64,000 nucleotides of DNA from Patescibacteria group bacterium (GCA_022709565.1 JAKLIO010000001.1:150906-214905); one strand, 5' to 3'. Numbered from the stretch's first letter, positions 8,710 to 52,025 are shown. The notes: generated by a model from the letters alone, not told the origin. Numbers and translations are program-made.

Positions 8710-8983
8710 CTTAAATCGAGTAGAAAAATCAGACACTTAGTTCTTATGAAAATATTAGCATTTAATGCTAAATCCATTTTTTGCTTTTGTTGACCTGTAG
8801 GCAGTTGGGGACTCCTATCTTTTGTCCTCAATTCGGCAACTTTTTTGTCCAGACATGGGCATCGCGGTTTCGGCTGCGGTGTTCCTCGACACTGTTGCTT
8901 CCCCGAGGGACCTCGTCTTTTGGGACTTGTCTACAGATCAATGAAAACAAGATTTAAAATAAAACGTTAAAGGAGTTCATACA

Positions 8984-9297: not shown

Positions 9298-12200
9298 TTA
9301 GACTACCCGATCCACTTCATCAAAAGTCGTTTCGCCTTCGAGAACTTTCAAAATGCCGTCTTGTTCCATGGTGATCATGCCGTTTTCAACGGCCTTGTCC
9401 TGAAGCTGCGTCGTGGACGCGCTTTGCATAATCAATTCTTCGATATCTCGGTCAACTACAAACACTTCGCTGATGGTCGTCCGGCCTTTATAGCCAATTT
9501 TGTTGCATTTTTCGCAGCCATTCGGCACATACACGTGGTCGACTTTCGGAATAATCACGCCGGATTTTTCGGAAATATTTTTCAAAACTTTTTCCACCCT
9601 AGCTTTTTCTTCTTCAGTCATTGGTCTTTCTTTCTTGCAGTCGCAAAGTTTTCTGACCAGCCGCTGCGCCATGAGCGCGTTCACAGATGTGGCCAAATCA
9701 TCACTACGCACGCCCATGTTAGTTAAACGCTGGATGGAACCCGCCGCACTATTGGTGTGGAGCGTGGAAAGAATCGAATGGCCGGTCAGAGCGGATTGCA
9801 CCGCAATATTGGCGGTTTCTTCATCGCGGATTTCACCGATCATCATAATGTCCGGATTCTGACGAAGAAGTGCGCGGAGAGCTGTGGCAAAATTATAGCC
9901 ATTCTTATCATCCACAGCTGTCTGCAAAATTCCTTGGAGTTGATATTCGATTGGATCTTCCACGCTGATGATTTTCACTTCCGGATTATTTAAAATTTTC
10001 AAAATACTGTAGAGCGTTGTTGTTTTTCCTGATCCGGTCGGGCCCGTGTTCAAAAATACGCCGTTCGGTTTTTTTGTTTCACGAATTATCCTTTCCAAAT
10101 TCTGCTTGCGAATTCCCAGCTTTTCCAAATCAAGCGCAACTGCCGATTTGTTGAGAAGACGCATTACGACTGTTTCCCCATAGCCGCCCAAAATTACAGA
10201 CACGCGGACATCCACTTTTGTTTCGGTTATGTTTTTATACGGTTTTTCCAGAGCTATCGTAAAGCGACTGTCCAAGACCCCCCCTCGCACATCCGAAGCA
10301 AACCCGCTTAATAATTTTATATTACCCAAAAGGCTTGGATATTCGTTGATTGGAATTTCCGCAACTGTTTGCAAAATCCCGTCCATGCGGTAACGAATCT
10401 TCACAAATTTTTCTTCCGGTTCAATATGAATATCGCCAACATTCAAAAGCAAACCACTGCCTAGCATATATTTCCCGACTTCCCGCTGATTGGAATTTTG
10501 AAGAAATTTGCCCAAAGATTCAATCGATGCCATATTTTCGGAAACCACATTAAGCTCTTCTTCAGAAATCTCCACAGCCCGCGAAAGAGATTGGTCCATT
10601 AATTTTGCGTAAATATCTTCCAAAAAATCTGTTTGTCCGGTCGCGCTCCAAACTTCCTCCATTGAAGTCAAACCTCCAATAGCTTTAAGAATTCCGTCTT
10701 GCGCCATCATAATCATTCCGTCTTCCATGGCCGCCTGAGTGATTTCTCTTTCACTGCCCATTTCTATAATAAGCTTTTCAACAGACTCCGTGATTGTTAA
10801 AACTTCAAAAATTCCGATACGACCCTTGAAACCAATACTATGGCACTTGCTACAACCAACCGGACGATAAAGCTTTTCAACTGTTTTCGGAATTTCCAGT
10901 TTAGCTTTCGGCGAAATAATAGAAAGGATTTTTTTAATTGAATTGATTGTTTCCTTGGCTGGCACATATTCTTCTCGGCAATGCGGACAAAGTTTTCGCA
11001 CCAGTCGCTGTGCAATGAAAGCATTGACGGAGGGTGCGATAAGGTTTGATTTGACTCCTAACTCTATCAATCTGGGAATTGAAGCTGAAGCATTGTTAGT
11101 ATGTAGTGTTGAAAGCACCAAGTGGCCAGTAAGAGCCGCATTCACGGAAATGTCGGCTGTTTCATCATCGCGTATTTCACCCACCAAAACAACATCGGGA
11201 TCTTGGCGCACAATCGCCCGAAGACCTTCAGCAAAAGTATAGCCGCGGTCTTTTTCAACCTGTGTCTGTGAAATATTTTTCACTTCGTATTCAATAGGAT
11301 CTTCAATGGTAATTATTTTCACCCCTGGCGTATTCAGTTTATTAATAAGAGCATAAAGCGTGGTGGTTTTGCCTGATCCGGTTGGTCCGGTTGTCAGAAT
11401 CATGCCATGGGGTTTTTCAGTTTCTTTTTTTACTCGTTCGTAGGCCAAACCCTGCAGTCCCAAATCCTCCATTGAAAGCATAATGTCAGCTTGATTCAAA
11501 AGACGCATAACAATTGATTCTCCATGATTGCCGGGAATAATGTTAACGCGCACGTTTATTTTTCCATTTTCCATATCAACTGCAAAATGGCCGTCTTGAG
11601 CAGAATCGCGAACATTAATTTTCAATTTTCCCATCATTTTAATGCGAGACAGAATGCTGCGATAAGATTGGTCCGGAAAAACACCGATATCTTGCAGTTC
11701 GCCATCGATGCGAAAACGCATGCGCGCTGTTCCTTCCTGTGGTTCAAAGTGAACATCACTAGCTTTCATTTTCACTGCTCCAGCCATAATAATGGAAATA
11801 ATTTCTGTTGTGGGGATTTCCCGGATACGATTTTTAAGATTCAAAAGTTCGCCGAATTCTTTTTCAAATTCTTCCAGATCCTCACCACTCAGTTTTATTT
11901 GCATTGATTCCAGACTTTCCAAAAAAGGAACATCCTCATATCTTTTCCAGACTTTTTTCAAAGAAGCGGTTGAGATCACATACAGATGAACTATCCACCC
12001 CTCTTCCTTTTTGATTTTTTCAATGTGTTCCAATGTTTCTTTATTGCTCGGATTGATAACCCCTATCCGTAATTCTTTGCCATTTTTTTGAAAAACTGCC
12101 ATTTCATATTTTTTAGAATCCTCCTCGCTTATCAAGCGCATATCGTCCGAACTTACCGGAAAAATATTAAGATCAACATATTCCATGTTGGCCATAGCTG

Positions 12201-12315
12201 CCATCTGCGCTGCCAGCTCTTCCTCCGATTGCTCGCGCATCTTTTGCAGAATTTTTCCAGTCTGCTCCTGCTTCTCGTCGCTTTGCTTTATTTTTTTTGT
12301 AGAAATCTTAACCAT
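9298..12315 (-). CDS. tandem-duplicated PilB/GspE-family secretion ATPase (T2SSE_N domain plus two complete ATPase units)
   Basis: Two Walker A boxes GPTGSGKTTTLY (DNA about 11362-11388 and 10016-10045); two Asp boxes (IITIEDPIEY, IISVEDPIEY); two Walker B boxes (DPDVVLVGEIRD, NPDIMMIGEIRD); two His boxes (TGHLVLSTLHTN, TGHSILSTLHTN). The N-terminal MshEN-like region occurs only once. Confidence 0.9.
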   Translation of the reverse strand: MVKISTKKIKQSDEKQEQTGKILQKMREQSEEELAAQMAAMANMEYVDLNIFPVSSDDMRLISEEDSKKYEMAVFQKNGKELRIGVINPSNKETLEHIEKIKKEEGWIVHLYVISTASLKKVWKRYEDVPFLESLESMQIKLSGEDLEEFEKEFGELLNLKNRIREIPTTEIISIIMAGAVKMKASDVHFEPQEGTARMRFRIDGELQDIGVFPDQSYRSILSRIKMMGKLKINVRDSAQDGHFAVDMENGKINVRVNIIPGNHGESIVMRLLNQADIMLSMEDLGLQGLAYERVKKETEKPHGMILTTGPTGSGKTTTLYALINKLNTPGVKIITIEDPIEYEVKNISQTQVEKDRGYTFAEGLRAIVRQDPDVVLVGEIRDDETADISVNAALTGHLVLSTLHTNNASASIPRLIELGVKSNLIAPSVNAFIAQRLVRKLCPHCREEYVPAKETINSIKKILSIISPKAKLEIPKTVEKLYRPVGCSKCHSIGFKGRIGIFEVLTITESVEKLIIEMGSEREITQAAMEDGMIMMAQDGILKAIGGLTSMEEVWSATGQTDFLEDIYAKLMDQSLSRAVEISEEELNVVSENMASIESLGKFLQNSNQREVGKYMLGSGLLLNVGDIHIEPEEKFVKIRYRMDGILQTVAEIPINEYPSLLGNIKLLSGFASDVRGGVLDSRFTIALEKPYKNITETKVDVRVSVILGGYGETVVMRLLNKSAVALDLEKLGIRKQNLERIIRETKKPNGVFLNTGPTGSGKTTTLYSILKILNNPEVKIISVEDPIEYQLQGILQTAVDDKNGYNFATALRALLRQNPDIMMIGEIRDEETANIAVQSALTGHSILSTLHTNSAAGSIQRLTNMGVRSDDLATSVNALMAQRLVRKLCDCKKERPMTEEEKARVEKVLKNISEKSGVIIPKVDHVYVPNGCEKCNKIGYKGRTTISEVFVVDRDIEELIMQSASTTQLQDKAVENGMITMEQDGILKVLEGETTFDEVDRVV

Positions 12316-12455
12316 AAACCTTTCTTTTTATTTTAGTGTCTTTGTTTTTATAAAGAGTACCCTTATTATACATATTTTAACTCAAAAAGCTTAAATAAGC
12401 AAAAAGACTGTCTTGAATTTTCAATTTATAATTTTTGCATTTTTGCATCCCCTAG

Positions 12456-12633
12456 GCGCCATATGAAGTACGTAGGCTAAGCGCGAGTGATGAGCGTTAA
12501 AAAATTTTAAAACGGAGCGTAGCGGAGTGCAAATTTTAGCGAAGAATGAAGCGCTTGCCATCAGTATCTTCATCCGGCGCGACTTTCTTTTGTAACTTTT
12601 CTTATCTAGAAAGAAAAGTTAATTATGAATTTT
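12456..12633 (+). repeat. 178-bp near-identical direct repeat, copy 1
   Basis: Identical to 15050-15228 apart from one extra C in copy 2. Contains a long imperfect hairpin (GCGCC..ATGAAG..GGC.AAGCGC / GCGCTT.GCC..CTTCAT..GGCGC) and a second hairpin ACTTTTCTT/AAGAAAAGT. Confidence 0.85.
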
Positions 12634-12733
12634 GCGGAAAAAGAAAGTGGAAATAAGTTTTTTAAAAAAAGACAAAAAAATATACACTTTGCCTCGGCCG
12701 ATGCAAAGCGTATAACAAGACAAAAAATATTTT

Positions 12734-13879
12734 TTATTGCTGAACCGCCAGTCCAGCTCGCAGTTTTTCCACAATCCGCTGCCCAGCTTCAGCCGTATCA
12801 GTCGCTTCCTGCTTGAACTCGCAAACATCTCCACTAGCTTTCACTTCCATAATTTCCGCGATTTTGTTAAGCTGTTCTTCATTCACGCATTTGATGATTC
12901 CATGAACTTCGCCAGCCGTTTCATTGAAAAGCACCATAAAAATTCGGCCAGCTGAATAATTTTCTTTAATCTTATCCAGAATAAAAGGCACGTCCGACGG
13001 GTTACTGCGGCTCTGCACAAAATCTTCAATATAGACAGGAGCCCAAGCCATTCCCAAATCATCTTCCCAGAAAAGCCGCGACATCACGCGTCCCCAAAGC
13101 TTCAAAAGATGAAACGGTTGCGTCTTGAACAGATAGCGGATAATTTTTTGCTGGTCAGCCCCTTTAGCCATCAGCATAGCTGCAATCTGCAAAGCTTTCG
13201 GCGTAGTGTTTTTTTTCTGGAAGCTGTTAGTCGCATCAACTATTCCAGTCAGCAGATTTTCCGCAATTTTTTCATCAATATTATTTTCATTATTTTTTTG
13301 CAAAAGATCGGCTACAATTTCACAAGTTGAAGAAGCGGTCATGTCCACGACATTTATCTGCCCGAAATTGTCATTCTCACTGTGATTGTCGATATTAACC
13401 ACCGGCACTTCATAAAAAATATCCGGATTTTCTTCATAGACCTTGCCCAAAGATTCCTTATCCGGACTGCCCAGCACGATCACCAAATCATACTTAAACT
13501 TGGCCGGAATAAATGAAAAGTCGCGCGGATCAATTGAACCTTTTTCCGGCGTAATAAAAATGTTGAGCTGTTCGCCGCTGCGCTCCGTGCGCACGTTGGT
13601 AATTTTATTATGTTCCGTGTTAAAAGAAAGAACGAAATCGCGCGCGCCCGCCAAACTATCCATGACATCTTCCGGTTTGTTCAGAAAAGAAAAACGATCA
13701 AACTGTTTATTTTCAGACGGCACAACCACTGTCGCTTCGATCCCGGTTTTTTTCAGAAAAAAATACATCGCCCAAGCCGAACCTATGGCATCACCCGCTC
13801 CGCTGTGCGCCATAAAAATCAACGCGTGCTTCGTGCTTTTCAAGATACTTTCAAATTGTTGCGAGTTGTCTAAAACCAT
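12734..13879 (-). CDS. DHH-family phosphoesterase paralogue with degenerate catalytic motifs
   Basis: NrnA-like layout, but motif I reads HSGAGDAIGS (canonical H..PDGDxxGS), motif III reads DNH instead of DHH, and no GGGH box is evident. Confidence 0.65.
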   Translation of the reverse strand: MVLDNSQQFESILKSTKHALIFMAHSGAGDAIGSAWAMYFFLKKTGIEATVVVPSENKQFDRFSFLNKPEDVMDSLAGARDFVLSFNTEHNKITNVRTERSGEQLNIFITPEKGSIDPRDFSFIPAKFKYDLVIVLGSPDKESLGKVYEENPDIFYEVPVVNIDNHSENDNFGQINVVDMTASSTCEIVADLLQKNNENNIDEKIAENLLTGIVDATNSFQKKNTTPKALQIAAMLMAKGADQQKIIRYLFKTQPFHLLKLWGRVMSRLFWEDDLGMAWAPVYIEDFVQSRSNPSDVPFILDKIKENYSAGRIFMVLFNETAGEVHGIIKCVNEEQLNKIAEIMEVKASGDVCEFKQEATDTAEAGQRIVEKLRAGLAVQQ

Positions 13880-34009: not shown

Positions 34010-34360
34010 CTAGAAATTGCCTTCAGTGTTCAACATTGCCTTAACTGCCTGAATTATAACAACCCCCGCAAGAGCTACAATGACTCCAACAATAGCATAA
34101 ACCATAGCCTTTTTACCTTTGTCAATCTGCTCCTGATCTCCAGCCGCAGTCAAATAGATAATGCCCGCTATCACGAAACCAATAACTCCCAATATACCAA
34201 CAATAATCAGTAGCCAGTTCATAGCACCCGTAAGAATGCCGACGACTGTTCCGTTTGGAAGATTAGTTCCGGATGGAGTTGTAAATTGTGCTCCTGCCGC
34301 AAAAGGCATAACCATAATATAGGCAGCGAACCCGTATGCAGTTTTCTTAATAATATTCAT
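34010..34360 (-). CDS. VirB2/TrbC-like T4SS pilin-family protein
   Basis: SD GGAGGTG 5 nt before the ATG at 34360. Signal-like N-terminus ending AAGA, then two TM helices joined by the loop LTAAGDQEQIDKGKKA. Same architecture as the other pilin paralogues in this window. Confidence 0.6.
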   Translation of the reverse strand: MNIIKKTAYGFAAYIMVMPFAAGAQFTTPSGTNLPNGTVVGILTGAMNWLLIIVGILGVIGFVIAGIIYLTAAGDQEQIDKGKKAMVYAIVGVIVALAGVVIIQAVKAMLNTEGNF

Positions 34361-34442
34361 AACCACACCTCCTTTCTTAATTTATAATTTATTTATTTTA
34401 TTTCCTTGATTCTGATTAATCTACTAATGCTTTGCGGAATTT

Positions 34443-34718
34443 TTAGCTTAAAAAATTGCTGATTGTTTTAACGATAATCAGACCGCTCAGCGCCATAACA
34501 ATTCCGATTATTGCGTATTTCGTGCTGTCTTTGGCAATTTGTATTTTTTTTTCATCTCCGGCAGAAAAAAAATAAAGCGCTCCGGAAATAGCTAGCATTA
34601 TTATAGCAATTATTCCAACGATTGACAACAAAAAATTGAGAGTGTTGGCTAAAATATCTTTGAAAGATGTTGCATCGGAAATGGTTCCTGCATGGGCAAT
34701 TTCAATTAAGTGTAACAT
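34443..34718 (-). CDS. VirB2/TrbC-like T4SS pilin-family protein (short N-terminus)
   Basis: Two TM helices with the loop FSAGDEKKIQIAKDS. ATG at 34718 (TTG at 34724 is the alternative). Confidence 0.55.
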   Translation of the reverse strand: MLHLIEIAHAGTISDATSFKDILANTLNFLLSIVGIIAIIMLAISGALYFFSAGDEKKIQIAKDSTKYAIIGIVMALSGLIIVKTISNFLS

Positions 34719-34744
34719 AAACAAAAAAAATTAATTTTACACGG

Positions 34745-36073
34745 TTAATTTCTGAGATCAATTATATTGCCTGAGTTTTTTGTTTCTTCGCTTAATTCTA
34801 CAAACTCTTTTTCATTATTTTTGTAACTCTTTGGCTTCATTTGCCATTGAGAATGCTGCTGGAATTGTTTTGGCGGAACTGATTGCACATTTGTTTTTTG
34901 CACGCTGCTTTTTATTTCCTCAGTTTTGGCATCATTGACTGCTTGTTCTGCTGGTAATTTCTGCGCTGAAGAAAAACTTATTGATCCGCTAGTTAAAGCG
35001 GTATTTTGATCTGAATTATTTCTATCTTTGATGCTTGCGAAATCATTGAAATAATTATCTTTTCCCGAATTTATCTTTTGACCGACATTTTTGAAATAGT
35101 TTTCATCTTTGATACTGCTTTGCTCTTTTTTTTCATTCTTAAAATCCATGGAAGGACTAGTCTGCGGTTTTTTGATGGCTTGCGGCACATATCTTTGAAA
35201 AACATCTTTCTGTTCAATAGCAGCGCTGGTTTTTAGATCTTCGCTTCTTTCATCCATTTCTTTTCTCATATTTACCATGGTCTGTTGTTTGGCAACTTCG
35301 GATTGTTCATTATTTTCAAAAATAACAGTCTGTTTTTCCGGATCAATTTTGATAGACGTTTTTTCCTCCAATGACTTCAAAATAAAAGCTAGTTTTTGTC
35401 TTTCAATCGGTGTTATTTTTTTTCCGTTATCGCCATGAAAAAGATAATTGGATCGATCCATAGCACTGTGTTTGCCGGCACCCATATTGTCGTGAAAATC
35501 CGTGATCCAATTTTTGATGGATGGCCTGACGGAAGTTGGAAAATATCTAAGCTTTAGGGGGTTGACTGTTACTGATTGTTCTCCGATATTGGGATATTTT
35601 TCCAGTGCCATATTCAGATCCATACTGATTATTTTTTGAGCTGCTTTTTCTTCCTGTTTTTTTTCTTCTTTTTCTTGCTCAACAATCCACGGTTCAATGT
35701 CTAAAACCCGCCTCTGAACTTTTTCTTCGGTTACAATAGGGGGGATTTTGTTCTGTTCCCATTGTTTCAGCAGTTCTTGCGCATTTTTAAAATAGTCATC
35801 GAACGGACAGAATGATTTTTTGCTTAGTTCGCAGGCAATTCCATTTGCAATATCATTCTTTACCTGAAAAGCAGCTTGAATCTTCATTGGCAGTTGATCT
35901 AGGGGCATATCTTTTATGAAAATATCTCTCACTGGTAAAGCTATTTTTTCTATATCATCTTCTTTTATATCATACAAAAAACAAGCTCGTTCAATATCTA
36001 AACGCACATCATTGGCACACAAATATTCTCGCACTTTTTCGGGTAAATTGTTTATTTTTTCTGAAAAATCCAT
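34745..36073 (-). CDS. hypothetical protein (442 aa) of the T4SS-like block; no TM helix, Q/N/K-rich C-terminal half
   Basis: Clean ORF tightly packed between the VirB6-like gene and the pilin genes; no family recognised. Confidence 0.6.
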   Translation of the reverse strand: MDFSEKINNLPEKVREYLCANDVRLDIERACFLYDIKEDDIEKIALPVRDIFIKDMPLDQLPMKIQAAFQVKNDIANGIACELSKKSFCPFDDYFKNAQELLKQWEQNKIPPIVTEEKVQRRVLDIEPWIVEQEKEEKKQEEKAAQKIISMDLNMALEKYPNIGEQSVTVNPLKLRYFPTSVRPSIKNWITDFHDNMGAGKHSAMDRSNYLFHGDNGKKITPIERQKLAFILKSLEEKTSIKIDPEKQTVIFENNEQSEVAKQQTMVNMRKEMDERSEDLKTSAAIEQKDVFQRYVPQAIKKPQTSPSMDFKNEKKEQSSIKDENYFKNVGQKINSGKDNYFNDFASIKDRNNSDQNTALTSGSISFSSAQKLPAEQAVNDAKTEEIKSSVQKTNVQSVPPKQFQQHSQWQMKPKSYKNNEKEFVELSEETKNSGNIIDLRN

Positions 36074-36095
36074 CCTTTTTTATTTATTTTTTATT

Positions 36096-38321
36096 TTATA
36101 AAAAACCAGCTAACACAGGGCTTCTTCTTATCTGTTTTACCAATTCAGGTCTCGGCGGATCAAGTTCATTAACTGCTTTTACCAATGCTTTTCTGCTTTC
36201 ATCAGTTTTTAAATTTGAACCTATCTCATTAAATTTTCCAGCACTTATATGTTTAGCAATTTCAGGAGCAAGTTTTTGTATCGTACCCTCAGTAAGATTC
36301 TTCGTATTATCCTTGTCAAATCGCTTAATTAAATCTCTTCTTTCAATATCAACCAATGAACTATGGATTTCTCCTGTTGCAGCCGTATGCGCCAATTGTA
36401 TTTGCATATTTGTTTCATTGGCAGTATTGCCATGATCCGGATCGTTAGCAAGTTGTATAATAGATTGTTTAATATTTCTCTTGTGCTCTTCGCTTTTTTC
36501 AGCTAAATTGCGAAGTCCCTTCTCGTTAAGACCTCCATGTTTCATAGCTATCTCTACAAATTTAACATTGCCAAGCGCATTAGCACTAAGTTTTTTCTCA
36601 TCATATTGATTGCTTTCAACATGCTCTCTAGCTGCATTCTCATCAAGTTTTGTGGTTTTAGAACCGTCCGGATTAGTAACTGTAGTAGAAAATGCCGAAG
36701 CCGGATCATATGCTTTAACTTTATTTTGCATTTGCTTGAATACCTGGCTGTTTTCACCAAAAAGCTCCCTGACCTTGTCGAGTTCTTCTGTGCCTTTAGT
36801 TTTTCCGCGATTAGCAAGTTCTTGATACGCAGCTGCTTGAGTATGCTTGCTTCCTGTTCTGGCTAGATTTTGAAGGTCAAGATTATTCATATTTGCAGTA
36901 TCGCGAAGCTTGGCCTCTTCAGCCACCTTGGCAGATTCCGCAGATTGATATCGATTTGCAGCATGCTGTGCCGTATAGCCCTTTGAAAATATCCCTCCCC
37001 TTAATTGATCTTGCTTGTTGCCAGCCCAATTTCCCAAACGATTCGACCATTTGTCTCCTTTGGCCTGATCCCTGCGCGCCTGATAAGCTTTATAAGCGCC
37101 TGCTGCAAATGTCAAGCCGGAAGCAAATTTTATAGCGCTCTTTGCAAAACCTTGCGCTTTATCAACAACCAAATTCGATCCGGCAATTCCCATCGATTTA
37201 GCTACGCCCATTCCAAACCATAAAACAACGATGGGAACCATAAAAAATGAAGCATTTGAAACAAATTTAGCCACATCAGAGTCCACGGTGCTTGAAGTAG
37301 CTGCTTTCAAAAAAGCGTTTTGATCATCACCCATAGCCTTAGTTATTGCTAAAGCCACGACTAACATAAAAACCATGATTGGTCCGAAAAAAGCATAGTT
37401 AAAAAGTTTACCCCACCAATCACTGGCAAATTTCTGGGTACTTGGAAAAATAAAACCGACGAAGCCAATTGGGGAAAACATTATTAGTATTGTCAGCGCC
37501 ACTATTCTAATCAAAAAAAGAGCGCCCAAAATCAGCAATGTCATGCCAAAAATAAAGGTGAATACTATACTCATCAACTCAAACGTAAGTGGCATTTTTT
37601 CAAAACCGGCTGGAGTCATTATCTTAGAAATTTGTGAAAAAGTGCCGAAGCTTGCGGCTATTGTCGAACCAGTTGCCTTGCTTCCCGAGGCTAATGAAGA
37701 AGTAAACATATTGTTCAGGAAATAATACATAGCTACATTGGATATGTCTATGAAAAAACGTGCGATCGGATAGCTGAAGTTTACCAGCAAAGCGTTAATA
37801 AGAATATTGAGCCAGGTTTTTTTTAAGTTCCATTTTTCTACTTGGAAAATTGTGCAAAAAGCCGAAAAAAGCAAAACTAGAATAAAAAACATATTCGCAA
37901 TATCTCTGACCATAACCCAAATATTTTTTACGGCATTTCTATTGAAAATCCCCTTGTCACCTGAGATTATATCAGGATTCATAACGGCTTCTAGAATACT
38001 TGTAGCTATAGAAACCAAGACTACCATGCCTTTTTGAATAAGCAACATTAAATTGCCTATTGTGGCATCAGCAATAGCTTGAGCGCCAGCTCCTACTACT
38101 TCGCCTGCTTTTTTCCCAACCCAATTCACCGGATTCGTAAGGAATCCTTGATCATCTGCCGCCAATACCCCTTCAGCATTAATAAAAAAAACGCACACCA
38201 AAAATAAAACAACCAAAATTGTTTTTGTTCTTTTGCTGCGCAGAATGTTTTTCAACTTGCAAAAAAAATCGCTTGTTGATTTTTCGCAAGGTATTTTTTT
38301 GTTTTTAAAAATCCAGTTCAT
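36096..38321 (-). CDS. polytopic membrane protein, VirB6/TrbL-like candidate, with a roughly 340-aa helical C-terminal domain
   Basis: An N-terminal TM helix, a periplasmic-like segment, at least 6 further TM helices (residues about 130-400), then a long soluble tail. Assignment rests on topology and context only. Confidence 0.45.
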   Translation of the reverse strand: MNWIFKNKKIPCEKSTSDFFCKLKNILRSKRTKTILVVLFLVCVFFINAEGVLAADDQGFLTNPVNWVGKKAGEVVGAGAQAIADATIGNLMLLIQKGMVVLVSIATSILEAVMNPDIISGDKGIFNRNAVKNIWVMVRDIANMFFILVLLFSAFCTIFQVEKWNLKKTWLNILINALLVNFSYPIARFFIDISNVAMYYFLNNMFTSSLASGSKATGSTIAASFGTFSQISKIMTPAGFEKMPLTFELMSIVFTFIFGMTLLILGALFLIRIVALTILIMFSPIGFVGFIFPSTQKFASDWWGKLFNYAFFGPIMVFMLVVALAITKAMGDDQNAFLKAATSSTVDSDVAKFVSNASFFMVPIVVLWFGMGVAKSMGIAGSNLVVDKAQGFAKSAIKFASGLTFAAGAYKAYQARRDQAKGDKWSNRLGNWAGNKQDQLRGGIFSKGYTAQHAANRYQSAESAKVAEEAKLRDTANMNNLDLQNLARTGSKHTQAAAYQELANRGKTKGTEELDKVRELFGENSQVFKQMQNKVKAYDPASAFSTTVTNPDGSKTTKLDENAAREHVESNQYDEKKLSANALGNVKFVEIAMKHGGLNEKGLRNLAEKSEEHKRNIKQSIIQLANDPDHGNTANETNMQIQLAHTAATGEIHSSLVDIERRDLIKRFDKDNTKNLTEGTIQKLAPEIAKHISAGKFNEIGSNLKTDESRKALVKAVNELDPPRPELVKQIRRSPVLAGFL

Positions 38322-38500
38322 CAGGATTTAGTATAATTGTCTATCTATAAAAAATTATAGCATACTTTTTCAATATCAAGAAGTATTTTATGCACAAAAA
38401 AATCGACCCAAGAAAGGCCGATTTTTATAAAAAATATTTTGTGTTTTTTATGGCTTGTATATTTTACTAATAAGCTAAGCAGCTAAAGAAGCTAACGAAG

Positions 38501-39655
38501 CTAATAGATGTATCCCTTAATTACCCGACTGGAAGTTGAAATTGTCCGGCGGCTGGTTTTGGCATAGCCCACATAATTCATTTCCGAAACGGTTATGGTT
38601 CCGCCGCTGACTTTTTCCACATAGGCCACGTGGCCGTAATATCTGTTTTCAGTCGTCACTACAATCGAGCCGACACGCGGCGATTTGCCGGTTGCATAAC
38701 CCATGGCTTTGGCATGATAGAGCCAGGTTCCGGCATTACCACCCCAAGGAACATAGCGTTTTTGCGAGACAAACCAGGTACAATATCCATATGGAAATCT
38801 GTGTCCAGCGCCAGCCTTGCCCCTTGGCGTAACTTCAGAAATTTGTGGAGTTCCCCCGCTAGAGGTTGCATATTGCCTCTTATCAAGCAACGACTGGCTG
38901 CTGGGAGCGGGTTTTGGCGCCTCGCCCTGCCCGTCCGGAATAATAATTTCTTTTCCAACTTCAATATCGCCATTGGCCGGCAAATCATTGAAAGCTATAA
39001 TTTTATCTTTCTCCGCCTTATATTTATTAGCGATTGATTCAATATTATCCCCTGATTTAATCACATATTTTATGCCTGATACCGGCAAAATAAACATAGT
39101 ATCCCCTGGCATTATCGAATCAACATTTTCGATATCATTGGCCCACAAAAGAGTATTCACTGAAATTTTATTCTTTTCGGCAATCGATCCAAGAGTATCG
39201 CCAGATTGGACAACATACATTTCAACCCCACCTTCTTCTTCCGGATCCTGCATCGGGCTCGCTCCCCCGGAAGCTGTCATTATGCCTTGCTCGCTAATCA
39301 CGTTTTTGATTATTTCTTCTTCTTTGGCTTCCGGATCAACAGATGTATTCGGCTTTGAAAGAGGAACCAGCGCCAAATCATTTTTTTTGTCGGTTTGGCC
39401 GCTAATTCTACTTTCTACGATCTGGGATTCATTTGAATCATCCAAATAACCAAAAAGAAAGCCACTATTGACTTTGCCTGATGCAACATTAGTTGCTGCC
39501 ACAAGAAGCGAGCTGGACACAACAACCGCAAAAGCTGAGTAGTTGCGCAGAAGATGCAGGAGCTTTATTGTCCTGTGCTCCTTGATAAATCTCGCTATGC
39601 TGTGTTGGTAGAAATGGAGCTTGGTGTTGAAACCTTTGAGGTCGATTTTTTCCAA
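38501..39655 (-). CDS. membrane-anchored peptidoglycan hydrolase, 2x LysM + CHAP domain
   Basis: LysM repeats YVVQSGDTLGSIAEKNKISVNTLLWAN and YVIKSGDNIESIANKYKAEKDKIIAFN. CHAP region FPYGYCTWFV...GHVAYVE. TTG start, uncertain. Confidence 0.8.
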   Translation of the reverse strand: MEKIDLKGFNTKLHFYQHSIARFIKEHRTIKLLHLLRNYSAFAVVVSSSLLVAATNVASGKVNSGFLFGYLDDSNESQIVESRISGQTDKKNDLALVPLSKPNTSVDPEAKEEEIIKNVISEQGIMTASGGASPMQDPEEEGGVEMYVVQSGDTLGSIAEKNKISVNTLLWANDIENVDSIMPGDTMFILPVSGIKYVIKSGDNIESIANKYKAEKDKIIAFNDLPANGDIEVGKEIIIPDGQGEAPKPAPSSQSLLDKRQYATSSGGTPQISEVTPRGKAGAGHRFPYGYCTWFVSQKRYVPWGGNAGTWLYHAKAMGYATGKSPRVGSIVVTTENRYYGHVAYVEKVSGGTITVSEMNYVGYAKTSRRTISTSSRVIKGYIY

Positions 39656-47527: not shown

Positions 47528-48058
47528 TCATGCCCCTGCTTTTTCAGTTTTTTCGGTATTTGCTCTTTCATAAAGAACCATAAGATAGACCAGCAAATTT
47601 ACAATGATTGAAATAGGCAAAACGCCTAAGCCAGGAAAACTATCAAATAAACTACCCGCAACCCAGAGAGCTATTTTTAGCATTAATCTTGCTTTAAGCT
47701 TGCCATGCACTTTTTCTTCCACTTCCGAAAACTTAGCCAATTGCATCATCATAATACCAAAAATGGTGTTGAGTATAGAAACGATAAAGGAAAACGGATA
47801 AAGAATAACCAGCGCTTGGCAGACAACATCTATAATTTCTTTCAATATAGTGGCCACCATCATGCAAAGATAAGGCTGATCTTTGAATAGATTCATTTGC
47901 CCCAATAAAGCAAAGGGATTAAAAGTTTTTTTTCTGGCTATACCACTCTTTTTAAGCTCTTTCTTGTTCTTACTGCCCGAATTTATCGGACGACTGTCTT
48001 CAGCTAGTGCTCGAGATTTTTTTAAATCCTCATTGTATTGTTCATTGGTATAAGACAT
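47528..48058 (-). CDS. membrane protein (about 3-4 TM) downstream of virB4
   Basis: Basic N-terminal 50 aa followed by hydrophobic helices. The ATG at 48058 is preferred over the TTG at 48064; no family recognised. Confidence 0.5.
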   Translation of the reverse strand: MSYTNEQYNEDLKKSRALAEDSRPINSGSKNKKELKKSGIARKKTFNPFALLGQMNLFKDQPYLCMMVATILKEIIDVVCQALVILYPFSFIVSILNTIFGIMMMQLAKFSEVEEKVHGKLKARLMLKIALWVAGSLFDSFPGLGVLPISIIVNLLVYLMVLYERANTEKTEKAGA

Positions 48059-48086
48059 AGTCAAAAAATTTCAAGTTATACTTCCA

Positions 48087-49919
48087 CTAGTTGCCTTCCT
48101 CTTCCGCTTCAAGGTCTTTCTTGGCTTGTTCAATTTCCATCAGCTGGCGCGGATCAGATGTGATTATTTGATCCTCGGCATAGGAAGCAATGACTTTAAT
48201 CGCAACATGTTTGGCTCCGGCGAAAAGAATTCCTTCGCCAACGCCGCTTTCCAGAAGCAAGAATTTTTCCTGCTCAGTCAGATAGAAAGTATCAGAAATT
48301 GTTTCGATAGCCGCCGGCGACTGGCGCAGCAGAAACTGCAATGATGAGTTGGTAACGATTGGCTTACCGTAGCGCGATGCCATAAAATCAGCAATATCTT
48401 GAGTAATTGTAGTAAGCCCCGTGTAATATTTTCTGCAACGCTTGGCAATTCCGAACAAAAATGAGGCAGCATCTTCATTCTGCATCATAACCCAAGCCTC
48501 ATCGACAACCACTATTCTTTTCTTAAGAGAAGAGCGCATTTCATTCCAAATAAACTGCAGAACGGTGTACATAGCAATTGGACGCAACTGCTCTTCCAAA
48601 TCGCGAATATTAAAAACTACCATTTGATTATTTATCTGAACATTTGTCGTATGATTAAGCACTCCCGCAAAAATTCCTTCCGTATATTTTTCCATTCTTT
48701 TAGCAATCGACTCTCCGCCTTCCGAATTTCTGACTACCGAATAAAGATCTGCCATCGTGGGAAAAGAATTGTAGTTCAAGTTTTTAAAATCAGTCTGTGC
48801 TGTGATATCACGCAGCGCATACGTTTCACGGATTGCCACATCTAATATTGAATCTTCTTCTGGTGTGACATTTCCAAGCATAAGATGAAGAAGGCCGATC
48901 AAACTGGCAATATTACTCCTGAGAACATCCTCTGGATCTTCATCCTCTCCAATCTTAGGCAAGTCAAAAGGATTGAGATGATAATTCGAGTTCAAAGACA
49001 TTTTTATAAAAGCTCCGCCGACAGTTTCACAAAGATATTTATACTCGTTTTCAGGATCTATGACGACAACGTTTGTGCCGACCATCAATGACCTGAATAT
49101 TTCTAGCTTGACTGTATAGCTTTTTCCTCCCCCAGATTTAGCAAAAACAACCATGTTGGCATTTTCCATTTTGAATCTGTCAAATAAAATCAGGCTGTTA
49201 TTGTGACGATTGATTCCATACAAAATTCCTTCATTGGAAGAAAGATCCGAAGAAACAAAAGGAAAAGTAGTGGACAGCGGTGCCGTATTAAGGTTATTGG
49301 CTACATCCAATTCATCGTTAGCCAAGGGCAGTGTCGAAGTAAACGCTTGTTCAACTTTTAAAACGGCTGGTTTTACATAAACCATTTGGGCTTCCAGCAG
49401 TGATTCGATCTGTCTATGCATTTTTTCTACTTCTTCCAAATTGTTGCCATACAAAGTCATATATAATCCGAAGCGAAAAAATTTCTCCGTTCCCTGCTGC
49501 AATTTATCACGAAGATCTTCAATATCCTGAATAGCCGTTTCCAAGATTGGATTGCGAATTTTTCCAGATTCTTCTTCTATATGAATTTGCGACTGTACTT
49601 GCGTGGAACTTTTTCTGAGCGTTTTTAAAATTTCCGCCGTATTGATTGGATGGATAAACATGGAGGTATCCATAGAAAAATCAATATTAATTATCGGCGC
49701 AAACCAGTTGGTATGCAGATATCTGGGATAAGCCACGACGAAAATAGTTCTGGCAACTGTTTCTCCGATCTGCAGGTTATTAGCACTAATTTTCATGGCT
49801 GACGGAGCAATCAAATCTTTGATTGTCGCCACCCCTCTTTGATACAAATCTTCACTTTGCAAAAGCTCGCTATCAACCACGGGGGGTTTTTTGTTTTTAT
49901 TTATATCTAATCCAAACAT
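48087..49919 (-). CDS. virB4: VirB4/TrbE/PrgJ-family type IV secretion ATPase (short, 610 aa)
   Basis: N-terminal pattern RTIFVVAYPRYLHTNWFAPIIN, Walker A VFAKSGGGKSY, Walker B RIVVVDEAW, and TTITQDIADF. Confidence 0.85.
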   Translation of the reverse strand: MFGLDINKNKKPPVVDSELLQSEDLYQRGVATIKDLIAPSAMKISANNLQIGETVARTIFVVAYPRYLHTNWFAPIINIDFSMDTSMFIHPINTAEILKTLRKSSTQVQSQIHIEEESGKIRNPILETAIQDIEDLRDKLQQGTEKFFRFGLYMTLYGNNLEEVEKMHRQIESLLEAQMVYVKPAVLKVEQAFTSTLPLANDELDVANNLNTAPLSTTFPFVSSDLSSNEGILYGINRHNNSLILFDRFKMENANMVVFAKSGGGKSYTVKLEIFRSLMVGTNVVVIDPENEYKYLCETVGGAFIKMSLNSNYHLNPFDLPKIGEDEDPEDVLRSNIASLIGLLHLMLGNVTPEEDSILDVAIRETYALRDITAQTDFKNLNYNSFPTMADLYSVVRNSEGGESIAKRMEKYTEGIFAGVLNHTTNVQINNQMVVFNIRDLEEQLRPIAMYTVLQFIWNEMRSSLKKRIVVVDEAWVMMQNEDAASFLFGIAKRCRKYYTGLTTITQDIADFMASRYGKPIVTNSSLQFLLRQSPAAIETISDTFYLTEQEKFLLLESGVGEGILFAGAKHVAIKVIASYAEDQIITSDPRQLMEIEQAKKDLEAEEEGN

Positions 49920-50054
49920 CTGTTTTGTTTTTATGAATTAAGATTCAGTTATCAACACACTACACTTTTGCTAGCTACGGAAATCCCAACATTTTATATT
50001 TATATATGCGCCTGCCTGCCGGTAGGCAGGTACTTTATTAGTAATTAGTAAACA

Positions 50055-50744
50055 TTATTTCAATTCTACTTTTTCAATATCTTTAATTATGGAGTTGTTG
50101 CGTGTTGATGGATTGTAGGAATTATATAAAAGCTCTATAAGCTCTTCGGTCTTTAGTAGGACAATCTTAACTCCAGTCCCCCCAAGGCCTGCTGTTACGT
50201 GATCCACTCTCTGCCAAAGCTGGTTTTTATAAGTTTCAAAAAGTTCTCTTCTGCGAGCTATGCTCATTTGCGTATTTGCGGATCCCAGAAGTCTGTCAAA
50301 AAAACCGGTTTTTATATTTTCGACTGGATGAAAAGGAACGACAACATAAAAAAACTTAGACATAATATTGGATACCTCGGCTAAATTTTTAATAAAATTT
50401 TGATATTCAGAAATTTGAAAAATAAGCAGCTCGTTGTCAAGTTGAGTTTCTTTCTTCTTAAGATACTCCATATACGGCTTTATATTGAGCTTTCTGGAAC
50501 TTATGAGAATCTGCATCGGAAAATCCAGAGAGTTCAGAAAATTTTGATATTGGCTAATGATAGAGTCCTGCTCTTCGGTGGCTTTGAGATCGAAATTTAT
50601 TGATGAGACTAAAAGAACTGCCCTGAATGAGCCATCCTTAAGAATAATAACACCATCTTTAACCTCTTCCACGTCGACATATTTTTGCGTGCTTGAACCG
50701 CTATTGCCTCCGCTAGTAAGTTTTTGTGAATGCAAAAATTCCAT
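50055..50744 (-). CDS. soluble 229-aa protein between the VirB3-like and VirB4 genes; candidate detached VirB4 N-terminal domain
   Basis: No TM helix. VDVEEVKDGVIILKDGSFRAVLLVSSINFDLKATEEQDSIISQYQNFLNSLDFPMQILI resembles the start of VirB4/TraC proteins (by eye). Confidence 0.5.
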   Translation of the reverse strand: MEFLHSQKLTSGGNSGSSTQKYVDVEEVKDGVIILKDGSFRAVLLVSSINFDLKATEEQDSIISQYQNFLNSLDFPMQILISSRKLNIKPYMEYLKKKETQLDNELLIFQISEYQNFIKNLAEVSNIMSKFFYVVVPFHPVENIKTGFFDRLLGSANTQMSIARRRELFETYKNQLWQRVDHVTAGLGGTGVKIVLLKTEELIELLYNSYNPSTRNNSIIKDIEKVELK

Positions 50745-50870
50745 TTGTTTTACTAATTACTAATTATTTACCTGCCCTAATTTGCAATTCATTGCAAGCG
50801 AGCGAATATGCAAATTCCGAAAAGAATTTCATTTGTACATTTGTAATAAATTCGTACTTTCGTTGGGATA

Positions 50871-51320
50871 TTATTTTTTTACCGGAGCTTTTTTTAATAT
50901 TTCTTCCAAATCAGTACTGTACTGCGCGCCTTCGCTATCTACTAAGCGCGCCAGTCCTCTCAATTCTTCTGACGACAATTCCTTTTTCGCCGAAACAGTG
51001 GTAATTTCATTTTTTTTATGCGTTGAAGGAGCTTCTTTTTGTGGCGTTCTCTTCCAAAAATACAGCTTCGGATGAAAAAAATACATGATGCCAAATATTA
51101 TAAAATTTCCCAATGGCACACCGTATGGCTTAAAAAATGCTAGTGCCAAAAAAATCAGCGCTACTGGAAGCCCTATTAAAAAAAACAACGGACCCGGAAG
51201 CATGTTCCACATGACAATTAAAATCACTCCCATCGCTATAAGCCAACCCAGCTGTTTGGCTGTCAGGGGTCCGACAATCTTATCTTCTATATCGATGTAT
51301 TGTGGAACATTAATTAGCAT
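50871..51320 (-). CDS. PrgI-family (VirB3-like) membrane protein
   Basis: VPQYIDIEDKIVGPLTAKQLGWLIAMGVILIV followed by a second TM helix, the PrgI-family pattern as I remember it. Confidence 0.6.
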   Translation of the reverse strand: MLINVPQYIDIEDKIVGPLTAKQLGWLIAMGVILIVMWNMLPGPLFFLIGLPVALIFLALAFFKPYGVPLGNFIIFGIMYFFHPKLYFWKRTPQKEAPSTHKKNEITTVSAKKELSSEELRGLARLVDSEGAQYSTDLEEILKKAPVKK

Positions 51321-51377
51321 TTTATGTCTAAATTTCGACAGTTTATTAGCCGAAAATTTTAAAAAATTATTTATTTT

Positions 51378-52001: not shown

Positions 52002-52025
52002 TTTATTTGAAAATTTTAAAATTAC

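Follow-up and report, generated by a model that had tools for sequence, protein, structure and literature searches.

What might a single gene that encodes two complete PilB/GspE ATPase cores drive, when no pilus gene lies beside it? We encountered such a gene in a 64,000-nucleotide stretch of DNA from an ultrasmall Patescibacteria group bacterium of the CPR, a member of Moranbacteria (hereafter, the stretch is called the window). The open reading frame (9298..12315, minus strand, ATG start, 1005 aa), which we call the tandem PilB, had been described in an earlier note as one N-terminal domain followed by two full cores, and Pfam, NCBIfam and an alignment of the two halves all bore out that description. 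PF00437 (T2SSE) matched in two stretches with 746 bits summed over the two units (cut-off 24.9), and MshEN (PF05157) matched once per chain, at residues 43-111, with 26.8 bits against a cut-off of 23.1. Both NCBIfam equivalogs passed, each in two stretches and with scores that are likewise sums over the two units (TIGR02538 PilB, 860 vs. 676; TIGR02533 GspE, 872 vs. 630), and each unit by itself matched PilB/GspE chains at E = 1e-79 to 1e-97. In Foldseek comparisons, the unit cores matched PilB/PilF/GspE cores with TM 0.92-0.93 and an rmsd of about 2.5 A, and the best structural matches of both units were PilB/GspE. PilT structures matched far more weakly (E of about 1e-36 or weaker vs. 1e-106 for PilB; pilT_fam 343, again a sum over both units). 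PilT/PilU retraction ATPases are about 350 aa long and have neither an N1D nor a Zn-cysteine motif, whereas the tandem PilB has an N1D and the cysteine motif. Direct reading of the tandem PilB sequence revealed no RLGxx c-di-GMP motif. An architecture in which two full PilB/GspE cores follow a single MshEN-like N-domain is confirmed, and the gene, its parts and its upstream neighbor are laid out as follows.

9298..12315, minus strand: tandem PilB, whole gene, consisting of N1D, unit 1, linker and unit 2 plus the stop codon (Pfam, NCBIfam, AF2, Foldseek)
11932..12279, minus strand: N1D, MshEN/T2SSE_N-like, approximately residues 13-128 (Pfam MshEN; AF2 H13-41, E72-113, H116-128)
10636..11793, minus strand: unit 1 core, residues 175-560, with N2D at ~175-290 and CTD at ~291-560 (hmmsearch envelope)
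10471..10635, minus strand: inter-unit linker, residues 561-615 (conservation profile; AF2; half-to-half alignment from 137/578)
9301..10470, minus strand: unit 2 core, residues 616-1005, with N2D at ~616-738 and CTD at ~739-1005 (hmmsearch envelope)
12734..13879, minus strand: DHHx, 381 aa, a degenerate DHH/DHHA1 (NrnA-like) protein (Pfam DHH, 7.4e-13)

The linker has a conserved helix, TGQTDFLEDIYAKLMDQSLSR, then a low-confidence hinge (572-578) and after it a helical stretch that is the counterpart of residues 135-182, in front of unit 1. Among 64 proteins with two cores (doubles), residues G560, E566, Y569 and R579 of the linker region are nearly invariant. The AF2 monomer, in which the single domains are confidently modeled, has a pLDDT of 82.3 and a pTM of 0.46, with helices at 585-623 and pLDDT <50 at 572-578; given this pTM and the low-confidence hinge, the model leaves unit 2 unplaced relative to unit 1.

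We then compared the two units with each other and with GmPilB (Geobacter PilB), from which functional residues were mapped onto the 64 doubles, a set spanning 37-91% identity. Residues 137-555 and 578-1001 align with 43% protein identity (E = 9e-127), and the sole stretch shared by the DNA of the two halves is 337 nt long and 68% identical, so that no repeat is available to collapse. The Walker A sequence GPTGSGKT occurs at 310 in unit 1 and at 758 in unit 2. Unit 1 carries Walker A T312/K316, Asp box E338/E342, Walker B E380, pore-loop E385, His box T396/H398/H405 and Arg sensors R256/R271 and R440; the corresponding residues of unit 2 are T760/K764, E786/E790, E828, E833, T844/H846/H853, and R684/R704/R719 and R888. 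Seven pairs (K316/K764, E342/E790, E380/E828, H398/H846, H405/H853, R256/R704 and R271/R719) are invariant across the 64 doubles, and E385/E833 and R888 are at least 90% conserved. The only departure from the GmPilB catalytic and sensor set is at the equivalent of R257, where unit 1 has His243 and unit 2 has Arg684; with that one qualification, the residue mapping upholds the earlier reading that the catalytic motifs of both cores are intact. The cysteine motifs, CPHC443/CSKC488 in unit 1 and CDC891/CEKC934 in unit 2, are also as the earlier note gave them; the number of cysteines in unit 2 is still four. The CxxC...CxxC motif of unit 1 (C443/C446/C488/C491) is invariant among the 64 doubles, and in the CxC...CxxC motif of unit 2 (C891/C893/C934/C937) the outer two cysteines, C891 and C937, are invariant and C893 and C934 are at least 90% conserved. 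Judged by sequence, the tetracysteine, putative Zn motif, a PilB/GspE trait absent from PilT, is retained in both units.

Selection has also treated the two units alike. Of 127 columns conserved in canonical PilB, 88 are retained in both units, and the N2D alpha2 / alpha2-beta4 segment of unit 2, while diverged from the canonical sequence, is conserved within the family. The dN values of unit 1 and unit 2 are nearly equal (from 0.115/0.121 up to 0.268/0.263) and far below those of the N1D and the linker; the N1D is the fastest-evolving folded part (dN 0.31-0.59 vs. 0.11-0.27 for the cores). Purifying selection is shown to be equally strong on both units. A pseudo-ATPase half, which the earlier note had named as a possible refutation, is ruled out for either unit by the residue-by-residue GmPilB mapping, the retained columns and the dN comparison, and the protein is predicted to be an active tandem PilB-type assembly ATPase with the catalytic residues of both units intact.

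The survey of CPR genomes proposed in the earlier note did uncover the same fusion. Proteins with two cores occur in >120 clusters, which share 65-91% identity, come from many samples and are uniformly about 1005 aa long at 100% coverage. Another 13 representatives of 50%-identity clusters have the same build at 38-54% identity, and GTDB has 29 two-core loci; about 30 GTDB species are involved (Moranbacteria, Parcubacteria, Paceibacterota). One relative has three cores (protein P0025; locus L004); this triple is a singleton, seen in one cluster and on one contig. In an old assembly (L056), the gene is broken into ORFs of 893 and 119 aa, probably by a sequencing frameshift. Two sets of candidates were discarded: an apparently free unit 2 (P0153) is really a double cut short by the end of its 1.9-kb contig, and 2.55-kb matches in Saccharibacteria (L042, L043, L048) are really a PilB with an adjacent PilT. 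To the idea of an assembly chimera, a collapsed repeat or a decaying pseudogene half we assign practically no weight. The double has the same uninterrupted frame in hundreds of independent assemblies, identity between its halves is 43% for protein and no more than 68% for DNA, both halves are under purifying selection, and all catalytic residues are invariant; the cluster count, the GTDB loci and the 68% DNA identity over 337 nt exclude the artefact against which the earlier note had advised a check. The fusion is conserved lineage-wide and is not an assembly artefact. Full-text literature searches yielded no description of a tandem PilB or GspE, and the two-core PilB appears to be previously undescribed.

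The tandem PilB belongs to a CPR-specific "type-B" clade of PilB paralogs that lies outside the pilus operon. Neighbor-joining trees, in which deep nodes are weak (unit-2 monophyly, 56% support), separated operon PilBs and non-CPR PilBs from type-B single-unit proteins, unit 1 and unit 2 with 98% bootstrap, which places both units with the type-B singles and across the split from the operon-type (type-A) CPR PilBs. The latter (e.g., the 584-aa protein of L088) are of the same family, share the MshEN + T2SSE order and occur in the same genomes, but differ from the tandem PilB in having a single core, in clade and in lying inside an HK-RR-PilB-PilC-...-PilM-PilN operon. On one 921,850-bp contig (Ga0451577_0000003), a double 67% identical to ours lies at 191-214 kb, and HK, RR, PilB (584 aa), PilC, PilX_N, PilM and PilN follow one another at 297-318 kb. 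In a second case, a contig size of 150,260 bp recurs in all three match lists (double, PilC and operon PilB), and only one of the PilC matches has that contig size. A third pairing, P0491 with L011 (15,864 bp), was a coincidence, and L011 has no second PilB. The double coexists with a separate canonical PilB-PilC-PilM-PilN operon and is an extra motor; that it might be its genome's only PilB is refuted for at least two genomes, in which the operon PilB is also present.

Around the gene itself, no pilC, pilM, prepilin or second T2SSE gene was found anywhere in the 64-kb window, in agreement with the earlier statement that adjacent pilus genes are lacking. A prepilin motif scan of the window and related loci found nothing near the doubles, and Rfam and tRNA scans of the gene flanks gave no matches. 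Among 40 related loci there was no adjoining pilC, pilM or pilin gene, and a PilC was nearby in only two (L056 and L089), in which it stands alone 5-6 kb off on the opposite strand. The neighbors in the window are DHHx and, beyond a 985-nt gap, RuvB. DHHx is degenerate as reported before (its GGGH motif is lost and DHH has become DNH), but it is not the incidental neighbor that it had been taken for: it lies directly upstream on the same strand in 21 of the 28 doubles with enough flanking sequence (median gap, 113 nt), and also upstream of a single-unit ortholog (L007) and of the triple. It is missing in L005 and L035. DHHx is a conserved upstream partner, and from synteny only we infer that the two may be linked in function. 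The gene order in L007 is DHHx, a single-unit PilB of 565 aa and then RuvB, and the tandem PilB is the positional ortholog of this single-unit PilB. More broadly, the conserved non-pilus order is TsaE, a DHH-like or membrane protein, PilB and RuvB, and the TsaE...PilB...RuvB position reaches as far as Saccharibacteria (L055, L069). The term "orphan" used in the earlier note holds locally; it does not hold for a gene with a positional ortholog, a paralog clade of its own and, on a relative's contig, a canonical operon.

Each unit is 39-41% identical to PilB/GspE/PilF proteins of known structure (Geobacter metallireducens PilB, 5tsh/6olj; Thermus PilF, 5it5) and shares with them the N2D+CTD fold and, per unit, the Walker A, Asp box, atypical Walker B, His box, Arg sensors, pore-loop Glu and Zn-cysteine motif; the N-terminal, MshEN-like N1D is also common to both. 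The tandem PilB differs in having two cores per chain in place of one (three in P0025), a conserved linker and one N1D per two cores, in the CxC...CxxC motif and diverged N2D segment of unit 2, in the His at GmPilB R257 in unit 1, and in its location away from pilC, pilM and pilins. None of the structure matches was a solved structure with two cores in one chain. Two or three NTPase cores per chain do occur in p97/ClpB/NSF (type II AAA+), KaiC and the T7SS protein EccC (three FtsK-like domains), and engineered, covalently linked ClpX has demonstrated that subunit linkage is compatible with ring-motor function. These natural tandem ATPases resemble the tandem PilB in having several cores per chain and non-equivalent sites, but they belong to other ATPase classes, none of them PilT/VirB11, and their rings are stacked rather than alternating; the tandem PilB has a PilT-class fold and not an AAA+ fold, and the likeness to AAA+ and KaiC double rings is one of analogy only. 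The T4aP sets of PilB, PilT and PilU that share one PilC, paralogs that arose via ATPase duplication (PMC6668835), offer a parallel in that the genomes with the tandem PilB also have several hexameric-motor paralogs and, apparently, one PilC; the extra paralog here is PilB-like rather than PilT-like, and is internally duplicated. The PilC/GspF platform itself has an internal tandem duplication through which three chains would supply six homologous domains in the trimer proposed to work under a hexameric ATPase (PMC10790770), but it is a membrane protein of unrelated fold, and a trimer of the tandem PilB is one that we infer.

The tandem PilB most likely forms a pseudo-hexameric ring in which non-equivalent units from three chains alternate. 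In Moranbacteria and related Parcubacteria, a segment consisting of the pre-N2D helices, N2D and CTD was duplicated in place. Three chains arranged head-to-tail would close into one ring of six units (a trimer of covalent dimers), with unit 1 and unit 2 alternating around it. The PilB hexamer is built of N2D(n)-CTD(n+1) packing units (PMC5424180), and such alternation would make every one of them heterotypic. The ring would dock on a trimeric PilC-type platform, with the two N2Ds of each chain contacting both homologous cytoplasmic domains of one platform protomer, at an ATPase:platform stoichiometry of 3:3 in place of 6:3 and with only three N1D anchors per ring. In the PulE6:PulF3 model, each platform protomer binds two adjacent ATPase N2Ds via Cyto1 and Cyto2, and the N2D alpha2 / alpha2-beta4 region is named as the interface (PMC10790770); a three-chain ring would match this published trimeric platform, in which every PilC/GspF protomer takes up a pair of neighboring ATPase subunits. 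The three-unit relative would reach such a ring with two chains, as a dimer of trimers. The core copy numbers seen, 2 and 3, are both divisors of 6, an argument that is weak with the triple being a singleton. According to structure entry titles, hexamer conformers of both C2 ("ccocco") and C3 ("ocococ") type exist in the PilB/GspE family. Elsewhere, PilB and PilT share one PilC, and the tandem PilB may serve type IV filament dynamics as a second motor, one that possibly uses a single PilC in common with the operon PilB. The whole account, that of a tandem type-B PilB forming an alternating ring on trimeric PilC as a second filament motor, stands in our estimation at about an even chance.

The arrangement of the units could differ from this. 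Six chains could instead form coaxial unit-1 and unit-2 hexamers, a stacked double ring like those of p97, ClpB and KaiC, with 12 ATPase sites. Of its two rings, one would be turned toward the membrane platform, and the distal one would serve as a regulator or power booster. The 55-residue linker with its flexible hinge could span two rings, homotypic packing units could have outlasted the duplication without having to adapt anew, a copy number of 3 fits stacking as well as it fits a single ring, and engineered GspE-Hcp1 fusions (PDB 4ksr, 4kss) indicate that a C-terminally attached ring can stack under a GspE hexamer. However, no PilT-class ATPase is known to form stacked rings, and the platform would be out of reach for a distal ring, and yet E833 and a family-conserved N2D surface are preserved in unit 2, which is as constrained as unit 1. 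The published platform model also pairs two adjacent in-ring N2Ds with one protomer, and we judge stacking to be unlikely, if still deserving of attention. A different partner is a separate matter. Since genomes with the tandem PilB already have an operon PilB, the type-B paralog may serve something else, and the conserved neighbors hint at a partner other than PilC: DHHx, or c22, a 340-aa membrane protein that lies directly upstream in seven single type-B loci and in L035. The same architecture might then power a machine other than the canonical type IV pilus, such as DNA uptake or processing tied to the adjacent RuvB, RuvC and PolA, or an uncharacterized export step. The 98% separation from operon PilBs, the want of adjoining pilus genes in the 40 loci (the distant PilC of L056 and L089 excepted), DHHx in 21 of 28 loci, and the spread of the TsaE...PilB...RuvB position to Saccharibacteria all favor this idea. 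Against it, the region is a slowly rearranging housekeeping block (PolA, Fpg, HolA, TsaE, RuvB, RuvC), so adjacency may reflect synteny without function; DHHx is missing in two loci; all PilB hallmarks are kept, including N1D, Zn motif and pore-loop Glu; and no alternative platform protein was found, c22 having no Pfam match. On balance a non-pilus machine seems improbable to us, to much the same degree as stacking.

The earlier note had also suggested that the gene might serve the T4SS-like locus, which does lie 22 kb away as stated. T4SS-like genes occupy 34.0-39.7 kb and 47.5-52.5 kb of the window and encode a VirB4-like ATPase, PrgI, four T4SS_pilin proteins and a weak TrbL/VirB6 match. 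The tandem PilB and VirB11 are members of one ATPase superfamily, no VirB11 was found among the T4SS-like genes of the window, and L007 has a T4SS_pilin-domain gene after RuvB, all of which would be in keeping with a VirB11-type role. But Gram-positive-type T4SSs generally lack VirB11, and the tandem PilB scored below every relevant cut-off (VirB11, 98.7 vs. 249.95; TrbB, 99.1 vs. 304.55; DotB, 145.9 vs. 463.3). It has the N1D and Zn-cysteine motif of PilB/GspE, its best structure matches are PilB/GspE, and T4SS genes are not recurrent neighbors in the 40 related loci; we therefore regard this role as very improbable. Returning to the alternating ring, we tentatively entertain a joint reading that is possible but rather doubtful: naturally and covalently linked PilB motors (3x2, once 2x3) whose alternating, non-equivalent units are each specialized for one of the two cytoplasmic domains in a trimeric PilC platform. 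Such motors, together with a DHH/DHHA1 partner that has lost its catalytic activity, would make up a second PilB system particular to CPR, with a filament function apart from the canonical operon.

In the episymbiotic life of CPR bacteria, type IV pili have a central part. Parcubacteria are shown here to have another PilB paralog, not remarked on before, whose position is conserved and lies apart from the pilus genes, and pilus gene inventories that list one "PilB" for these bacteria are therefore incomplete. For the motor family more widely, the coupling of six ATPase subunits to a possibly trimeric platform is a standing problem, and PilB/PilT-class motors are thought to cycle as C2 hexamers, although C3 and C6 states have also been seen. 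In a natural chain of two or three fused units that differ from each other but are fully competent, both the order and the stoichiometry of subunits are fixed, and site-specific mutations in unit 1 vs. unit 2 (E380Q vs. E828Q) would address alternating positions in the ring, for which homohexamers need artificial linkage. If the proposed assembly is true, this natural "linked-subunit" experiment could decide between C2 and C3 working cycles of PilT-class motors.

The tandem ATPase gene occupies a single open reading frame:

9298-12315, minus strand: uninterrupted ORF with an ATG start, encoding the 1005-aa PilB/GspE-type ATPase (hereafter the double)

Pfam matched T2SSE to two stretches of the protein and residues 43-111 to an MshEN-type N-domain, and the NCBIfam equivalog models for both GspE and PilB scored above cut-off, again in two stretches each; the NCBIfam models for VirB11, TrbB and DotB all fell far below theirs. 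Residues 137-555 (the half with unit 1) aligned with residues 578-1001 (the half with unit 2) at 43% identity (E = 9e-127), and Walker A (GPTGSGKT) occurs at both 310 and 758. Pfam, NCBIfam and the alignment of the halves thus confirm an earlier note, made from the sequence alone, that described two PilB/GspE cores behind one N-domain. The cysteine motifs it listed were exact as well: unit 1 has CPHC443/CSKC488 and unit 2 has CDC891/CEKC934, still four cysteines in total. AlphaFold2 folded both units confidently (mean pLDDT 82.3), and in Foldseek each matched PilF, PilB and GspE cores with TM scores up to 0.93 and an rmsd of about 2.5 A. No solved chain with two cores was found among the structure matches. 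We regard the double as real, conserved and probably functional.

The double is not an assembly artefact. At the DNA level its halves have one stretch in common, 337 nt at 68% identity, so there is no repeat for an assembler to collapse, and the architecture recurs in many independent assemblies; the collapsed or chimeric assembly about which the earlier note had cautioned was not found. The survey of CPR genomes that it proposed recovered the fusion in at least 120 clusters. The best 120 clusters at 90% identity were almost all 1005-1020 aa long, with 100% coverage of and 65-91% identity to the double; they came from JGI, ENA, NCBI and Logan assemblies, and the named ones were Candidatus Moranbacteria or Patescibacteria. 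Among 1.84 billion cluster representatives, a search added 13 of 978-1018 aa, each with two cores and 38-54% identity, whose named members belong to the Parcubacteria group or Candidatus Paceibacterota. A GTDB scan yielded 29 two-core loci, plus five interrupted by contig ends.

One relative, P0025 (1460 aa; L004:10001-14383, JGI 3300022698 Ga0248662_100121), has three cores and lies behind the same DHH-like gene that precedes the double. It is represented by one cluster and one contig. Its cores are 44-58% identical to one another, which marks an old triplication rather than a misassembly. The middle unit carries the full CxxC...CxxC motif and the last unit CxC...CxxC.

Several database entries call for comment. 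In the older assembly of Candidatus Moranbacteria GW2011_GWF2_35_54 (L056:9989-12998), the double is broken into an 893-aa and an overlapping 119-aa ORF, most likely by a sequencing frameshift near the 3' end and not by natural truncation. Five short contigs titled 'uncultured Bdellovibrionales bacterium' in GTDB (L016, L021, L029, L030, L040) carry a Moranbacteria-type double (52-63% identity) with the same RuvB neighbour; these titles probably reflect mislabelling or bin contamination rather than an occurrence outside the CPR. A non-CPR MAG encodes P0138 (L006:10001-13144, GCA_964384625.1), a 1047-aa protein with two T2SSE cores and a T2SSF-matching N-terminal region, adjoining an ECF sigma/anti-sigma pair and sulfatases. 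As its two cores pair together in the tree, it is a secretion ATPase that was duplicated in tandem independently, and it is unrelated to the double.

We aligned each unit separately to the solved PilB of Geobacter metallireducens (GmPilB), with numbering calibrated on T327/E357.

Mapped GmPilB residues and their counterparts in the double
Walker A: GmPilB T327/K331; unit 1 T312/K316; unit 2 T760/K764
Asp box, Mg: GmPilB E357; unit 1 E342; unit 2 E790
Walker B: GmPilB E395; unit 1 E380; unit 2 E828
Pore loop 1: GmPilB E400; unit 1 E385; unit 2 E833
His box: GmPilB T411/H413/H420; unit 1 T396/H398/H405; unit 2 T844/H846/H853
Arg sensors: GmPilB R271/R286; unit 1 R256/R271; unit 2 R704/R719
Arg: GmPilB R455; unit 1 R440; unit 2 R888

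Across 64 aligned doubles (37-91% identity), all mapped residues were invariant or at least 90% conserved in both units. The sole asymmetric position corresponds to GmPilB R257: unit 1 has His243 there, and unit 2 has Arg684. Canonical PilBs show 127 columns with a conservation of 80% or more; of these, 88 were retained in both units, 6 were changed in unit 1 only, 16 in unit 2 only and 17 in both. In five comparisons, dN was nearly equal for unit 1 and unit 2 (0.115/0.121, 0.113/0.144, 0.151/0.214, 0.207/0.228 and 0.268/0.263) and much lower than for the N1D (0.31-0.59) or the linker (0.24-0.68); dS was saturated in these comparisons, and omega values are rough only. With the GmPilB residues kept and dN near-equal, both units look like working ATPases, and a pseudo-ATPase half, which the earlier note had named as a possible refutation, was not borne out.

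The double is embedded in a housekeeping region, in the order RuvC, YebC, LTD/PKD surface protein, bPH, RuvB, double, DHH-like protein, TsaE, PolA, Fpg, DUF3048 and HolA, with genes such as RNase Y, ClpP, trigger factor and NusA further along. As the earlier note had stated for its immediate neighbours, no pilus genes adjoin it: genes for PilC, PilM and prepilins are absent from the 64-kb window, as is another T2SSE gene. The gene order around the double was repeated in orthologs at 67% and 42% identity. Among doubles with enough flanking sequence, the gene directly upstream on the same strand was DHH-like in 21 of 28 (median gap, 113 nt), and RuvB was one of the six genes that follow in 21 of 25. 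Two DHH-family proteins are encoded in the window:

12734-13879, minus strand: 381-aa degenerate DHH/DHHA1 protein (DHHx), with two insertions and DHH changed to DNH
59825-60784, plus strand: 319-aa canonical DHH+DHHA1 protein, NrnA-like

DHHx is a diverged NrnA-type paralog that has lost the GGGH motif, in line with the degeneracy noted earlier. The DHH motif is lost as well in the lineages that bear doubles (IDNHS, IDNKN, IDNNP, IDCHS), and from its sequence DHHx resembles a pseudo-enzyme that has been kept throughout the lineage. The gap between DHHx and the ATPase (12316-12733) is 418 nt, compared to the 113-nt median in relatives; it contains several weak promoter-like matches and a 53-nt stretch common to L009 only, and no Rfam match was found in it. 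In a related MAG (L007), the same DHHx-PilB-RuvB position is held by a 565-aa PilB with one unit, which shares 50% identity with unit 1, indicating that the duplication happened in place.

A conserved non-coding element lies in the interval from the ATPase stop (9298) to the ruvB start (8312):

about 8780-8951, minus strand (ruvB sense): conserved element upstream of ruvB

The element spans about 145-170 nt and is 72-83% identical in DNA across about 30 loci where the flanking proteins are just 57-79% identical. It is always 100-300 nt upstream of ruvB, also in loci where further genes separate the ATPase from ruvB; L014 carries it twice. In an alignment of 20 sequences, a closing stem (CTGTAGACA...TGTCTACAG) is visible along with a hairpin in which 7 pairs carry compensatory changes, and a helix with AU/GU alternation favours the ruvB-sense strand. 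Rfam gave no match at E <= 0.1. The element is a candidate for a structured RNA outside the classified families or for a leader of ruvB. A 58-aa ORF on the plus strand (8781-8957) overlaps the element and is probably spurious.

Single-unit PilB loci of the CPR were of two kinds. Type A lies in a pilus operon (PilM, pilins, PilB, PilC, pilin); type B lies outside pilus operons, adjoining TsaE/TsaD, behind DHHx or c22. The latter, a ~340-aa polytopic membrane protein without a Pfam match (L035:8793-9815; also L044-L051), is encoded directly before type-B PilB and on the same strand. The c22-PilB pairing was found in Buchananbacteria- and Kuenenbacteria-type MAGs and in one double (L035); c22, in the position held by the DHH-like protein in Moranbacteria, may be an alternative partner. 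Two Saccharibacteria MAGs (L055:9971-11275 and L069:4706-6022) carry a PilB-like ATPase of 435-439 aa without an N1D beside TsaE, followed in L055 by RuvB. Parcubacteria have their type-B PilB at this chromosomal position, and the Saccharibacteria PilB-PilT-PilC operons (L042, L048) are separate from it.

In a neighbour-joining tree of 78 cores (200 bootstraps; deep nodes weak), a split at 98% set type A and non-CPR PilBs apart from a group made up of the type-B singles and both units of the doubles. Main-family unit 1 grouped at 80% (72% with L007) and unit 2 formed one clade at 56%. In the L035 double (45% identical), unit 1 fell with c22-type singles at 99% and unit 2 inside the unit-2 clade. 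We read this as a single old duplication, after which certain lineages underwent loss or exchange; for P0132 (L005), an independent duplication is conceivable.

The earlier note called the double an orphan with an unclear partner machine. That description holds only locally: a relative's contig carries a full PilB-PilC-PilM-PilN operon: Ga0451577_0000003 (921,850 bp) has a double at 191-214 kb and HK-RR-PilB(584 aa)-PilC-PilX_N-PilM-PilN at 297-318 kb. Because this contig carries both the double and a canonical operon with its own PilB, the double is an extra motor beside the operon's PilB. A 150,260-bp contig size common to the double, PilC and operon-PilB lists points to a second co-occurrence, matched on size. 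The search for platform genes suggested earlier also found, in L056 and the complete 1.27-Mb genome L089, a stand-alone PilC 5-6 kb from the DHHx-double-RuvB block. PilC on the 921,850-bp contig gave only one entry among matches down to 57% identity, which suggests, but does not prove, one PilC platform for two PilB-type motors.

Type IV pili are widespread in the CPR, with PilB, PilT, PilC and PilM/N/O often co-localised (PMC6744442), and two pilus systems operate in Saccharibacteria. A survey of the TFF superfamily covered ATPase paralogy and internal duplication of the platform, and a tandem ATPase is absent from it (PMC6668835). Database names of the double are generic ('GspE/PulE family protein'). 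The double has the same parts and chemistry as ordinary PilB; the covalent two- and threefold architecture, the paralog clade and the genomic context appear undescribed. Our full-text literature search, with thin coverage of subscription journals, turned up no account of PilB or GspE in tandem form, though a prior mention is possible.

How could two linked cores be arranged? In the PilB hexamer, flexible linkers connect rigid packing units of the form N2D(n)-CTD(n+1), and ATP binds between neighbouring ones (PMC5424180). In a cross-link-supported model, the GspF/PilC platform is a trimer under the ATPase hexamer, and the two homologous cytoplasmic domains of each protomer contact two adjacent N2Ds through the alpha2 helix and alpha2-beta4 loop (PMC10790770), so a two-unit chain would match exactly one platform protomer. 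Three chains of the double would close a six-unit ring with units 1 and 2 alternating, and the three-unit P0025 would form the same ring as a dimer. We consider such a pseudo-hexameric ring of three chains the most likely arrangement. Several unit-2-specific departures from the canonical sequence fall in the N2D alpha2/alpha2-beta4 segment, where 'sRiK...PQDGR' becomes 'g.IK.LsG.K...GV.DsRF', conserved within the family. These changes fit the ring, as do the pore-loop Glu kept in both units, the conserved first part of the inter-unit linker, and the C2 (ccocco) and C3 (ocococ) hexamer conformers that structure entry titles document for this ATPase class. A stack of a unit-1 ring and a unit-2 ring is sterically conceivable, given that in GspE-Hcp1 fusions the C-terminal face accommodates a ring, but it would leave unit 2, whose pore loop and N2D surface are conserved, without platform access. 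The AlphaFold2 monomer (pTM 0.46, low-confidence hinge at 572-578) does not fix how unit 2 lies relative to unit 1, and the partner machine is one we infer.

The separate PilB clade and the conserved non-pilus context make a role outside the pilus, together with DHHx or c22, a serious alternative to a pilus motor; however, the surrounding block is generally syntenic housekeeping DNA, and DHHx is missing from some doubles. The earlier note also proposed that the double might serve a T4SS-like locus, of which the window has two groups:

34010-39655: two T4SS_pilin genes, an unknown protein of 442 aa, a membrane protein of 741 aa with a weak TrbL/VirB6-like match (E = 0.0013), and a LysM-CHAP hydrolase
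47528-52502: VirB4-like ATPase, PrgI-family protein and two T4SS_pilin genes

Neither VirD4 nor VirB11 was seen within the 64-kb window, and we found no support for this proposal beyond the shared superfamily. The double is of mechanistic interest as a natural linked-subunit motor whose oligomeric state and partner we infer.
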